DNA from: Candidatus Nanohaloarchaea archaeon
GTDB lineage: Archaea > Nanohalarchaeota > Nanosalinia > Nanosalinales > Nanosalinaceae
Length of the DNA: 59,353 bases
Direction of reading: 5' to 3'
Assembly: GCA_047617745.1 (NCBI GenBank)
Contig: JBLGBN010000003.1
Coordinates: forward strand, 1 to 59,353
This document shows positions 56,400 through 59,353 of the stretch, one piece after another; the first letter of the stretch is position 1; each line of letters begins with the position of its first letter. The position numbers and the translations under genes are program-made. The notes under the pieces were generated by a model that was given only the letters and a program-made list of their open reading frames with translations, was not told the DNA's origin and made no database searches.

Positions 56400-56456
56400 A
56401 GGCTAATTACCGGTATCTGTTCAACTATTTAATTGTTGGTCGCGTCATTTTCCTGT

Positions 56457-56963
56457 ATGAAGGCTCCAATATGTAACGTATGCTTAAAGAGCGAGGACGA
56501 GCTCTGCAGCATGTGCGAAGACAAGTTTGAAAACGGCGAAATCACGGAAACCGACATTGAGGTCTCAAGAATTCTACACAACCTCAGCAAGGAACACGCC
56601 TCACTGAAGGACTCAGAAATAATCAAAACATTCGAAGCAGAAAACGTAGTAGTAATAGCGACCGCAAAAGGCGACGGCGCAAAAGTCGTCGGTAGAAGCG
56701 GAGAAATCGTCAAGAAAGTAGCAGATGAAGTAGGCAAATCAATCAGAGTAGTAGAGAAATCAGAGGATGATCTGGAGACAATTAAAGGGTTGCTTAGTCC
56801 TGCAGAAGTTGAATCCGTCAACACAGTCTTCACGCCGGAAGGGCAGGAGAAAAAGATCGTTGTCAGCGACGAATACGAAGGCAAGATCAACATCTCCGAA
56901 GAAGAGTTCGAAGACATAATTGAGGGAATAACCGGCACCAAGTACCGGCTCTCCTTCGAGTAA
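56457..56963 (+). CDS. NusA-like KH protein with N-terminal zinc finger
   Basis: MKAPICNVCLKS...LCSMCE and VVGRSGEIVK GxxG. Confidence 0.85.
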   Translation: MKAPICNVCLKSEDELCSMCEDKFENGEITETDIEVSRILHNLSKEHASLKDSEIIKTFEAENVVVIATAKGDGAKVVGRSGEIVKKVADEVGKSIRVVEKSEDDLETIKGLLSPAEVESVNTVFTPEGQEKKIVVSDEYEGKINISEEEFEDIIEGITGTKYRLSFE

Positions 56964-57035: not shown

Positions 57036-57656
57036 ATGGAAAAACTTGCTAGAATCGTGAAAGATTTCATTACGAACTCCGCTGAAGAAGACTACCGACA
57101 GACAGACCCTATTCGGGTACACAAATATGTGGACACCTTCACCTCCTCAATCATGGAGGACAGCCCTGTACTGGTGTCCCACAATCTAAGCATGGGATGG
57201 TCGGAAGATCTGGAAGAAGAGCTTGAAGCCAGTGAACTAAAACCGGAGTGGGAAGAAATAATCGAGGGAAAAACCCGGACACTGATGGATGACTTTCTGG
57301 AGGATTATCCTCAGGTAAAAGCATTCACCGACAAAATCGGCTACTCTCCTATCGAAAGCGAATCATACCGTTTCGGGCTTGCAGGCGCCTACACAGCAGA
57401 TATAATGGATCTAGATAATTCAGTGATGAAGGAAAGCGTGACTGCCGGACTAGACAAATCACTGGAAGACGCCGGCTTAAAGTACTACAGAAACTCGGCA
57501 GGTGAAGTCGCGGAAATAGACGAGACATTGGAGTGCGTCGAAGCCGGATTCGAGGACTACGGCAGTGAAATCAGGCGAGCCGAGCTGGAAGATGAAATAG
57601 ATAGGTGGTCGCCGATCACAGGATGGACCGATTACGAGGAAGAAATCAATGGTTAA
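57036..57656 (+). CDS. hypothetical protein
   Basis: 206-aa acidic ORF. Confidence 0.7.
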   Translation: MEKLARIVKDFITNSAEEDYRQTDPIRVHKYVDTFTSSIMEDSPVLVSHNLSMGWSEDLEEELEASELKPEWEEIIEGKTRTLMDDFLEDYPQVKAFTDKIGYSPIESESYRFGLAGAYTADIMDLDNSVMKESVTAGLDKSLEDAGLKYYRNSAGEVAEIDETLECVEAGFEDYGSEIRRAELEDEIDRWSPITGWTDYEEEING

Positions 57657-57725: not shown

Positions 57726-59353
57726 ATGGCAACAGAGAAAAACTCAAAGAAGTTCATTGTAGCGATCGATCAGGACAAGATAGAGCCGGACCTAGCGCGG
57801 GAAACCGTCATCAACTTTGATCCCTTGAATAGAGCTGGAAAAGAAGGCGGGTTCTATCTTGATGAGAACGAGGAGCTCCACATCGACGACGAAGACGTGA
57901 TGGAAGCCCACAAGATGGCGATCAACAAATACCCCTACGATAACGCCATCACAATGATACAGCTACCGTTCGAAGAAGGTGACAAAGTCCACCAGTTCTC
58001 GGAGAACAGCTTCCGGCTGTACGGACTGCCTGTACCCGAGGAAGGAAGATCAATCGGATTGCTTGGAGAGAACGGTATCGGTAAATCAGTTTCGCTGAAG
58101 ATACTAACTGGAGACACCAAGCCGAACTTCGGCGACTGGGAGAACCCGCCAAGCTGGGAGGAAATCGTGAAGGAATACCGGGGAACAGGGCTCCAGAATC
58201 ATTTCGAGAAACTGAAGAACGACGAAATAAGCTCCGCCTATAAACCACAGCAGGTGGAAAGACTTCCCGAAGTTTATTCAGGCAAAGTACAGCAACTTCT
58301 GAAGAAATCAGCAGAGAATGAGGATGAGATTGAGGAGATCGCAGAAAAACTAGATATAAACCAGCTTCTGGATCGGGATATTGAAAATCTCTCAGGCGGA
58401 GAACTACAGAGAGCTGCAATCGCATCCACACTGCTTAAAGACAAAGATATCTACATGTTCGACGAACCATCCTCTTTCCTTGACGTGAAACAGAGGCTCA
58501 ACGCGGGAAGAGAGATAGTCAACCTTGCTGAGAATAATTCTGTGATGACGGTTGAACACGATCTGGCAACACTTGACCTTATAGCGTCAGGAATCCACAT
58601 ATTCTATGGAGAACCTGGGGGTTATGGAATGGTATCCGATACACTTTCAACCAAAGAAGGTATCAACAACTACCTAGATGGATACCTGCCGTCCCAGAAC
58701 GTCCGGTTCAGGAAGGAGTCAATTGAGTTTGACAGAACCAAAAGATCACAGGTAGAACAACACAATACGGTGCTTGAATTCCCTGAAATGAGTAAAGACT
58801 TTGGGGAAGGAGAGTTCGAGCTGGAAACCGAATCAGGAGAGCTGCATGAAGAAGAAATACTCGCAATATTTGGAGAGAACGGGCTGGGAAAAACTGTCTT
58901 CGCCAAGATGCTGGCCGGAGCTATAGAACCTGATGAGGGCGAATCGCCCGACGTTTCAATTTCCTACAAACCACAGTACCTAGAGGCGCAGGATGAAACA
59001 GTAGAGGAAGCGCTCTCCAAACACACCAATGTAAACAGCAAGAGATTTGAGAACCGGATCGCGGAGCCGCTTGGCCTCGAAAAACTATACGAAAATAACC
59101 TAGAAGACCTTTCTGGAGGAGAGCTGCAGAGAGTTGGGATAGCTATCTGTCTCTCCAAAAACGCAGATATCTACCTTCTAGACGAGCCTTCCGCCTACCT
59201 GGATGTCGAGGCAAGAGTAGAGCTTGGAAGAACACTGAAACGGTTCGCAAGAAAGACTGAGAAACCATTAATGGTAATTGACCACGATCTCCTGATGCTG
59301 GACTATATTGCGGACCGGGGAATGGTTTTTAGAGGAGAACCCGGGGTTAGTGG
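57726..59353 (+). CDS. ribosome recycling ATPase ABCE1/RLI, runs off the window end (not in ORF track)
   Basis: NSFRLYGLPVP, GENGIGKS, YKPQ, LSGGELQR twice, DEPSSFLDV, GENGLGKT and DEPSAYLDVE. Confidence 0.95.
   Translation, partial: MATEKNSKKFIVAIDQDKIEPDLARETVINFDPLNRAGKEGGFYLDENEELHIDDEDVMEAHKMAINKYPYDNAITMIQLPFEEGDKVHQFSENSFRLYGLPVPEEGRSIGLLGENGIGKSVSLKILTGDTKPNFGDWENPPSWEEIVKEYRGTGLQNHFEKLKNDEISSAYKPQQVERLPEVYSGKVQQLLKKSAENEDEIEEIAEKLDINQLLDRDIENLSGGELQRAAIASTLLKDKDIYMFDEPSSFLDVKQRLNAGREIVNLAENNSVMTVEHDLATLDLIASGIHIFYGEPGGYGMVSDTLSTKEGINNYLDGYLPSQNVRFRKESIEFDRTKRSQVEQHNTVLEFPEMSKDFGEGEFELETESGELHEEEILAIFGENGLGKTVFAKMLAGAIEPDEGESPDVSISYKPQYLEAQDETVEEALSKHTNVNSKRFENRIAEPLGLEKLYENNLEDLSGGELQRVGIAICLSKNADIYLLDEPSAYLDVEARVELGRTLKRFARKTEKPLMVIDHDLLMLDYIADRGMVFRGEPGVS

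Follow-up and report, generated by a model that had tools for sequence, protein, structure and literature searches.

The ribosome-recycling ATPase ABCE1, also known as RLI, of a nanohaloarchaeon has lost every cysteine (Cys) with which canonical forms of the protein hold two iron-sulfur (Fe-S) clusters. The gene lies at the end of the window, a stretch of 59,353 nucleotides from Candidatus Nanohaloarchaea archaeon (assembly GCA_047617745.1, contig JBLGBN010000003.1, positions 1 to 59,353 of the forward strand), and its N-terminal domain (N-domain), homologous to the Fe-S cluster domain of canonical ABCE1, retains none of the eight ligand Cys. It is considered probable that this protein is the sole ABCE1 of the organism, that its N-domain was rebuilt in two steps as a module of protein alone without any Fe-S cluster, and that the gain was a factor proof against oxidants and iron shortage. 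In passages of three sources (PMC5711452, PMC8153317 and PMC13255074, among them reviews to 2026), every archaeal and eukaryotic genome is said to encode ABCE1, and the protein to carry two essential [4Fe-4S] clusters bound by eight conserved Cys, of which yeast requires no fewer than seven for viability; the original prediction, a note made from the letters of the window, had portrayed the canonical protein in agreement with these passages.

The coding sequence (CDS), its N-domain and the motifs of its two nucleotide-binding domains (NBDs) are placed in the window as follows (aa, amino acids).

57726..59351, + strand: ABCE1/RLI CDS, 542 aa, ATG start, 3' end cut by the contig end
57726..57968, + strand: N-domain, aa 1-81, homologue of the Fe-S cluster domain of ABCE1, 0/8 Cys
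58065..58088, + strand: NBD1 Walker A, GENGIGKS (motif, PF00005)
58389-58403, + strand: NBD1 signature, LSGGE
58449-58466, + strand: NBD1 Walker B, IYMFDE
58872..58895, + strand: NBD2 Walker A, GENGLGKT (motif, PF00005)
59109-59123, + strand: NBD2 signature, LSGGE
59169-59186, + strand: NBD2 Walker B, IYLLDE

The NCBIfam equivalog for RLI, NF009945 (PRK13409), is matched with 628.1 bits against a cut-off of 469, despite the protein ending at residue 542, with residues 11-541 of the protein covering positions 4-534 of a 592-position profile. ABCE1 of P. abyssi (3bk7_A) is matched with an expectation value (E) of 6.5e-146 (residues 8-540 on 18-550), and a full-length database protein of 597 aa (P0002) is identical at 539 of the 542 positions. 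The end of the protein, approximately 55 C-terminal residues, is missing, and a tblastn search of the genome with the C-terminal part of a further database protein (P0003) returned only an overlapping 12 residues on contig C3. PF00005 matches two stretches, giving two NBDs in one chain and no membrane domain, and by their motifs both ATPase sites are intact. The next-best matches in the PDB are ABC-F ATPases (EttA and relatives; E 1e-22 to 1e-24), which, as the window protein, are soluble twin-NBD proteins acting on the ribosome without an Fe-S cluster, but which differ from it in having no N-terminal wedge domain and another linker between the NBDs; assignment to ABC-F was rejected, as the NCBIfam scores lie far under the cut-offs (172 vs 380). 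The genome of the window (G000) also encodes the ribosome-splitting partners Pelota (209 bits) and an aRF1-like protein, aRF1-like matches being here and below the second matches of the Pelota model. Judged from sequence, the open reading frame (ORF) is a true ABCE1/RLI and, by gene content, probably the organism's only ABCE1 ribosome-recycling ATPase.

The Cys map of the N-domain was obtained from alignments to the ABCE1 proteins of P. abyssi and S. solfataricus (6tmf_d), in which the Fe-S domain requires gaps of one residue only. The eight ligand Cys of P. abyssi correspond to I19, A24, I29, D32, M59, H62, A65 and Y69, and the S. solfataricus alignment gives the same map with V28 instead of I29 at the third position. 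As the ligands in human ABCE1 are C16-C21-C25-C65 and C29-C55-C58-C61 (Table 1 of the 2026 review PMC13255074, from which that table is taken here), the first, second, third and eighth Cys (C1, C2, C3 and C8) hold one cluster, referred to as the ABCE1-type cluster, and C4 to C7 hold the other, referred to as ferredoxin-like.

57780..57782, + strand: I19, place of Cys 1 (ABCE1-type cluster), both alignments
57795..57797, + strand: A24, place of Cys 2 (ABCE1-type cluster), both alignments
57807..57812, + strand: V28-I29, place of Cys 3, the partner depending on gap placement
57819..57821, + strand: D32, place of Cys 4 (ferredoxin-like cluster), invariant in 136/136 Cys-less and 48/48 one-cluster sequences
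57900..57902, + strand: M59, place of Cys 5, both alignments
57909..57911, + strand: H62, place of Cys 6, invariant in 136/136 Cys-less and 48/48 one-cluster sequences
57918..57920, + strand: A65, place of Cys 7, where the Cys-less protein P0122 has a relic Cys
57930..57932, + strand: Y69, place of Cys 8 (ABCE1-type cluster), both alignments

The ligands of the ABCE1-type cluster are replaced by I, A, V/I and Y, all aliphatic or aromatic, and those of the ferredoxin-like cluster by D, M, H and A, with E60 adjacent. The sole Cys among the 542 residues is C475 in NBD2, residues 1-474 being free of it. No match to PF04068 (Fer4_RLI), PF00037 or any other member of the Fer4 clan was obtained for the window protein at E <= 1 in a Pfam scan, and its N-domain contains no CxxCxxCxxxCP ferredoxin motif; in comparison, a canonical relative from the same order (G001) matches both PF04068 and PF00037, and a relative of the window's own family with one ligand set left (G036) matches PF04068 only. 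The Fe-S domain with zero Cys that had been predicted is thereby confirmed at all eight ligand positions in both alignments; the N-terminal string quoted with it corresponds exactly to residues 10-81, and of the range 57726-57970 given for it the start is exact, the end of residues 1-81 lying at 57968. Absence of Cys alone is unremarkable in such a Cys-poor proteome, as the crude ORF set of the genome contains 0.69% Cys, so that 81 Cys-free residues are expected in ~57% of random stretches, and 360 of its 946 crude ORFs are Cys-free. It is noteworthy only because each position of the stretch has its homologous counterpart in a domain that eight Cys define. With these Cys lost, the cofactor-free state that had been proposed may apply, but D32, E60 and H62 occupy the site of one former cluster and might bind a single metal ion.

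The same form of the protein is widespread among relatives. Of 170 candidates from a word-indexed search with residues 1-95, 151 proteins reached E <= 0.001, and among the matches listed (the best 120 of 151) none of the 120 has a Cys in its first 100 residues, N-domain identity to the window ranges from 76 to 100%, and Ca. Nanohalobium constans and Ca. Nanosalina are among the organisms named. When 1.84 billion cluster representatives were scanned exhaustively with HMMER, the 95-residue N-domain as query matched no more than 16 proteins, of which 12 are Cys-less and 4 belong to the one-cluster type described below. Among 70 genomes of the GTDB phylum, all of one order, the Cys-less N-domain occurs in 48 of the 49 further members of f1, the family to which the window belongs, and in all eight of a second family (f5), and each of the 39 distinct N-domains from loci of these families is Cys-free within the protein (39/39). 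The trait therefore seems, from these genomes, to be fixed in two families of Nanohaloarchaeota.

The genome of the window, 834 kb in 34 contigs and 88.6% complete, fits the small-genome, DPANN-type host that had been proposed, and has a single ABCE1 match above the cut-off; the other seven matches, considered as a second ABCE1, were rejected as single-NBD ABC ATPases of <=93 bits, one of them SufC-like. One ABCE1 match each was also obtained in eight single-contig genomes of the family (G066, G032, G040, G047, G051, G053, G054 and G059), of which the loci read (L016, L028, L038, L053 and L054) are all Cys-less. Neither in G000 nor in these eight relatives, accordingly, was there the second, canonical ABCE1 that the original prediction had set against itself. 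Weak second matches of the N-domain occur in frames of 529-545 aa in seven f1 genomes; the one frame read (G024, L098) encodes subunit B of topoisomerase VI, and judged from it these matches are probably chance similarity.

The N-domain, although devoid of Cys, is under strong purifying selection. Twelve N-domain columns do not vary when 136 Cys-less ABCE1 proteins (f1, f5 and three outlying lineages) are aligned, namely Q16, D32, P33, L34, R36, G42, F43, L51, I53, V58, H62 and L80. When 30 coding sequences of f1 were compared in 406 pairs, the median non-synonymous difference was 0.108 in the 72-codon N-domain vs 0.184 in a 40-codon segment of NBD1, and the median ratio of non-synonymous to synonymous substitution (dN/dS) was 0.057 vs 0.129 over the 76 pairs for which dS was finite, values that are rough since dS is saturated (median ~1.7).

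The structure was modelled with AlphaFold2 from the 136 Cys-less sequences only, the last ~55 residues (the end of hinge 2) being taken from P0002 rather than the window. The full-length model has a mean predicted local distance difference test score (pLDDT) of 88 and a predicted template-modelling score (pTM) of 0.83, with the N-domain at pLDDT 66-82 in ten-residue blocks. The body, including the helix-loop-helix specific to ABCE1 and the hinges, matches the Fe-S-less crystal structures 1yqt, 5yv5 and 3ozx with target-normalised TM scores of 0.91-0.93 and a root mean square deviation (rmsd) of 2.3-2.5 A over 516-521 columns. For the full chain, the match to 3bk7 has TM 0.81 and rmsd 11.2 A, vs 5.5-6.3 A for post-splitting and 43S complexes, and from this gap the N-domain is oriented otherwise in the model than in the free crystal form. 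The predicted elements of the N-domain are strands at 10-14, 43-45, 51-53 and 75-79 and helices at 21-29 and 55-67, an order which we take to be the beta-alpha-beta-beta-alpha-beta of the ABCE1 Fe-S domain. A model of the domain only, from 39 sequences, has a core pLDDT of 76-85, and its top Foldseek match is ABCE1 3bk7 (E 0.018, probability 0.97, TM 0.44, rmsd 5.2 over 77 columns), followed by P. furiosus ferredoxin 1siz (E 0.069). Thus, of the ferredoxin-like fold that had been suggested, the element order is kept in the prediction, and the best structural match, though it is the ABCE1 Fe-S domain, is weak. With moderate confidence, the models indicate that the beta-alpha-beta-beta-alpha-beta layout is kept; the geometry of the domain is uncertain, as would be expected if side chains replace two cubanes.

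Two loops of the N-domain can be compared with contacts described in passages of PMC7196836 for S. solfataricus ABCE1, in which P25, R28 and S29 contact uS12 in the post-splitting complex and the K12-P13-D14 loop would clash with NBD2 on closure.

57822..57833, + strand: P33-L34-N35-R36, equivalent of S. solfataricus P25..R28 (uS12), P33 and R36 invariant in the Cys-less set
57783..57791, + strand: E20-P21-D22, equivalent of S. solfataricus K12-P13-D14, P21 nearly invariant

S29 of S. solfataricus corresponds to A37 in the window protein and is Ser in many relatives. In the mechanism that we propose, hydrophobic side chains and a network of Asp, Glu and His would fill both cluster cavities, and the module would still fold. 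It would still act as the mechanical wedge of ABCE1, being pushed out by closure of the NBDs, and would dock near h44 and uS12 via the conserved P-x-N-R loop.

The putative intermediate of the two-step origin is provided by ABCE1 proteins that may carry one cluster. In the ABCE1 of G036 (locus L043:67-1845; L043/L065, G036:C20), C1, C2, C3, C7 and C8 are kept, and D, T and H stand at C4, C5 and C6. A search with the N-domain of this protein returned 25 proteins, 24 of the same pattern and one canonical, and a scan of species-representative genomes returned 29 one-cluster ABCE1 loci besides two spurious bacterial matches; these loci are labelled Woesearchaeota, Nanoarchaeia, Nanoarchaeota or Nanobdellati, a few probably wrongly. 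The one-cluster sequences (L066-L093 and P0137-P0159) have D at C4 and H at C6 in 48/48 cases (43 by pattern, 5 by eye), and C7 is C or S. In these proteins the complete ligand set of the ABCE1-type cluster is kept and the ferredoxin-like set is lost. To our knowledge, one-cluster ABCE1 has not been described. The Cys-less and one-cluster forms have in common D at C4, H at C6 and the motifs DP[IL]NRSG.EGF and V.E.H, and with the eight Cys columns removed the N-domain identity between them is 38-41%, vs 29-33% between Cys-less and canonical forms. An outlier, P0122, is a Cys-less form with a lone relic Cys at C7. The ferredoxin-like cluster would have been lost in the first step, leaving a one-cluster form such as those of Woesearchaeota-type archaea and G036, and the ABCE1-type cluster would have been lost in the second.

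The protein of G036 appears to be a mosaic. Its NBD windows are 58-82% identical to the three closest f1 relatives and 47-77% to the window protein, vs 25-58% to the Woesearchaeota forms; in contrast, its N-domain is 44-46% identical to the f1 relatives and 57-64% to the Woesearchaeota forms. Body and N-domain therefore carry different histories, which could stem from recombination that exchanged domains, from repeated loss or from convergence. The G036 contig is syntenic with the genes upstream of ABCE1 in the window, and because f1-like sequence flanks the mosaic on both sides, an assembly chimera is less likely; the flanks would argue against it.

The selective reason may be sought in oxygen. 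In PMC3442406, the clusters of yeast Rli1 are described as a main target of reactive oxygen species, and such damage provides a plausible selective reason for cluster loss. In G000, contigs C17 and C29 encode SufB/SufD, a SufC-like ABC ATPase, SufS and a scaffold-like NifU_N protein. Its inventory of Fe-S proteins is, as far as domain and motif matches tell, extremely small: one radical-SAM match (Elp3), no Fer4 domain, no match to the PriL large-subunit family in a genome that is 88.6% complete, and no CxxCxxCxxxCP motif in the 946 crude ORFs. Across families, Fer4 domains are present in 2/49 genomes of f1, 0/8 of f5, 1/1 of a further family, f2, and 7/10 of a family named f4; bacterial-type SufB is present in 46/49, 5/8, 0/1 and 1/10, and Fe/Mn superoxide dismutase in 41/49, 4/8, 0/1 and 3/10, respectively, counts which, the genomes being kin, describe a pattern rather than a test. 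From this co-distribution, f1 and f5 look like oxygen-exposed lineages in which a robust SUF system still serves a few clients and ferredoxin-type proteins have been shed. The likely gain would be that an essential translation factor is no longer inactivated by oxygen or iron shortage, and it would fall in lineages that drop ferredoxin-type proteins yet keep SUF and superoxide dismutase. The crude proteome of G000 is acidic, with 11.1% E and 6.9% D.

Several features of the SufB loci are recorded here separately. In G000 the gene lies in two contig ends, C17:19513-19899 and C29:9-1079, with overlapping profile ranges of 320-448 and 3-358, and this split is an assembly break inside the gene. 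SufB matches also occur in frames of 829-890 aa (G048:C58:19591-22056, G039:C71, G068:C15 and G049:C54); in G048 the match falls in two parts ~1.1 kb apart in one frame, which looks like an intein-sized insertion.

A number of results weigh against the reading of a docked, cluster-free wedge that arose in two steps under oxygen, besides the saturated dS mentioned above. The isolated N-domain gave no Foldseek match at E <= 0.001, and a wide Foldseek-independent search (VIA) returned generic ferredoxin-like plaits of Z 5-6, with no ABCE1 in 50 rows. Residues K15, E19, K59, R2 and N17 of S. solfataricus contact rRNA (in passages of PMC7196836), and in the window protein the first four are changed to L23, T27, N67 and F10; docking on the ribosome may thus differ, as these rRNA contacts are not conserved. 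N17 is also changed, to R25, yet R25 is nearly invariant, as is K68, the counterpart of K60, for which no contact role is cited. The residue map therefore indicates that the loops facing uS12 and NBD2 are preserved and that the surface facing rRNA is altered. The argument from oxygen rests on related genomes that are not independent, and the one-cluster form is Woesearchaeotal.

The history of the NBDs is a further difficulty for the two-step reading. A tree of the NBDs only (49 rows, 505 columns, including the two long rows P0122 and P0127) was computed under LG+C20+F+G4 with posterior mean site frequencies (PMSF, quick search). All 18 Cys-less rows and G036 fall on one side of a branch supported by an SH-like approximate likelihood ratio test (SH-aLRT) value of 98, but their neighbours are canonical proteins with eight Cys (f2 type of the same order, G001, and relatives), and the one-cluster forms of Woesearchaeota constitute a separate clade among canonical proteins. 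FastTree on the same domains split f1 from f5 and placed f5 inside the canonical forms; the site-heterogeneous tree is trusted over it. Since G036 lies inside f1, domain exchange or repeated loss is needed. A Cys-less clade of the 18 rows without G036 was rejected by the approximately unbiased (AU) test, with p 6.2e-5 at a cost of 79 log-likelihood units, for a group that was named after the tree had been seen. On these trees the two-step history is not clean.

Other explanations differ in what they make of the altered ligand sites. A single metal ion (Fe, Zn or Mn) might be held by D32, E60 and H62, with H52 and M59 in addition, and replace the cubane as a structural or sensing centre. One His together with carboxylates is a common mononuclear metal site, the invariance of D32 and H62 extends over both the Cys-less and the one-cluster sets, E60, M59 and H52 are nearly invariant in the former, and D32, M59 and H62 should be near neighbours in the fold, since they stand in for three ligands of a single cluster. 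Nevertheless, an Asp-His hydrogen bond or salt bridge would explain the conservation of D32 and H62 without a metal, and H52 is Glu in the one-cluster forms, so that the metal site is regarded as unlikely, if worth serious attention. That the N-domain is instead a decaying remnant, in a protein that works like an ABCE1 lacking its Fe-S domain or does not work at all, is highly improbable. The domain sequence alone is indeed barely recognisable, matching in the PDB only 6tmf_d at E 0.065, and a sister family, f4, appears to live without ABCE1; yet the domain is better conserved than the NBD1 segment at a dN/dS of ~0.06, it retains 76-100% identity among the 120 homologues listed, and it has a fixed length, 12 invariant columns across two families and an open frame in 39/39 loci read.

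It may also be supposed that clusters act in trans, through a canonical ABCE1 or a docking Fe-S protein encoded in the unassembled 11% of a genome that is 88.6% complete in 34 contigs. This seems very improbable indeed, as a single ABCE1 match was found in G000 and in each of the eight single-contig family genomes, those read being Cys-less, and as G000 has no Fer4 domain and only two of 49 other f1 genomes have any. In the original prediction, the Cys were thought to have been lost because the symbiont had lost Fe-S cluster biogenesis. The very small Fe-S proteome (one radical-SAM protein, no Fer4, no PriL and no ferredoxin motif) would suit that explanation, but it is contradicted by the SUF components, the NifU_N protein and the radical-SAM Elp3 in G000, and order-wide by the distribution of SufB, the Cys-less families f1 and f5 being its carriers in contrast to f2 and f4; it can hardly be upheld any longer. 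The protein-only module under purifying selection thus stays the explanation that we prefer.

The family f4 (G003-G012) comprises 10 genomes of 5 genera, 80-93% complete and one of them in 8 contigs. ABCE1 was detected in 0/10 of these genomes, the family model giving at best 94 bits, to single NBDs, and a canonical ABCE1 protein of the order, used as query, giving at best 53 bits. Pelota is present in 9/10 genomes (268-286 bits) along with aRF1-like matches. Frames of ~550 aa with two Fer4 domains were considered as divergent ABCE1 and rejected: the one read (G010, L096, at G010:C49:41800-45600) is a 550-aa [FeFe]-hydrogenase large subunit that adjoins a NuoF-like FMN/4Fe-4S subunit. The hydrogenase would point to an anaerobic, fermentative lifestyle in f4, unlike f1 and f5. 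Synteny was compared around a gene which is the upstream neighbour of ABCE1 in the window.

56433..56963, + strand: NusA-like KH-domain protein, 176 aa (PF13184), adjoining ABCE1 in f1 and f5

In this comparison, which includes the ABCE1 coordinates of G015, no ORF of ABCE1 size lies downstream of the KH gene in G004 and G010; the missing adjacency in f4 is not decisive, because f2 is also without it. On present genomes f4 would be an archaeal lineage without ABCE1. It is possible, although we rather doubt it, that one order keeps every stage of dismantling: two clusters in f2, one in G036 and the Woesearchaeota-type form, none in f1 and f5, and no ABCE1 in f4.

Among the aRF1-like matches, frames of 917-973 aa were observed in G038:C5, G068:C23, G006:C3, G039:C84 and G037:C5, and further in G049:C75, G043:C52, G007:C10, G008:C5 and G023:C7, the usual length being ~420 aa. 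Such long frames could be due to an insertion such as an intein, or to a fusion.

Canonical archaeal ABCE1 (3BK7, 6TMF) belongs to the same orthologous family as the window protein and has the same parts, namely the N-domain, NBD1 with its helix-loop-helix, the hinge and NBD2, with 46% identity to 3bk7 over 602 aligned columns of the Foldseek alignment. The P-x-N-R loop contacting uS12 is common to both; the canonical protein differs in its eight cluster Cys, of which the window protein has 0/8, and in some rRNA contacts of the N-domain. One-cluster ABCE1, from Woesearchaeota and Nanoarchaeia metagenome-assembled genomes and G036, has an N-domain 38-45% identical to the Cys-less form with the Cys columns removed and, unlike the window protein, keeps C1, C2, C3 and C8 and a PF04068 match. 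Yeast Rli1 and human ABCE1 are of the same family (E ~5e-125), with the same presumed role alongside eRF1/Pelota homologues, but bear the clusters for which the window protein has lost all eight Cys. A parallel is provided by subunit D of RNA polymerase, in which a structural [4Fe-4S] domain is kept in some archaeal lineages and replaced by protein alone in others; in comparison, the clusters of ABCE1 have been treated as universal and essential. No published account of a cluster-free or DPANN variant of ABCE1 was found in the full-text literature, most subscription journals being outside its coverage, and the Cys-less clade is apparently an undescribed variant of a very well-known protein.

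The roles proposed for the ABCE1 clusters are those of a plain scaffold, a redox or oxygen sensor, and a link between iron supply and translation. A conserved Cys-less domain in a clade with single-copy ABCE1 argues for a mechanical role that depends on the domain rather than on the clusters; the clade is a natural test of what the clusters are for, supplies natural sequences for direct tests and should be of high interest to the fields of translation and Fe-S biology. The case often made from ABCE1 for Fe-S biogenesis being essential would be weakened. If one order does keep every stage of dismantling from two clusters to no ABCE1, the clusters are a dispensable structural or regulatory add-on, a wedge is possible from protein alone, cluster-bearing and cluster-free N-domains would be interchangeable cassettes on one ATPase body, as the mosaic of G036 suggests, and archaeal ribosome recycling could proceed without ABCE1. 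The family f4 is flagged as one that may do so.

Between the KH-domain gene and ABCE1, the window contains a very acidic ORF of 206 aa (57036-57656, + strand) without a Pfam match. G036 lacks it at this position, with ABCE1 following the KH gene almost directly.

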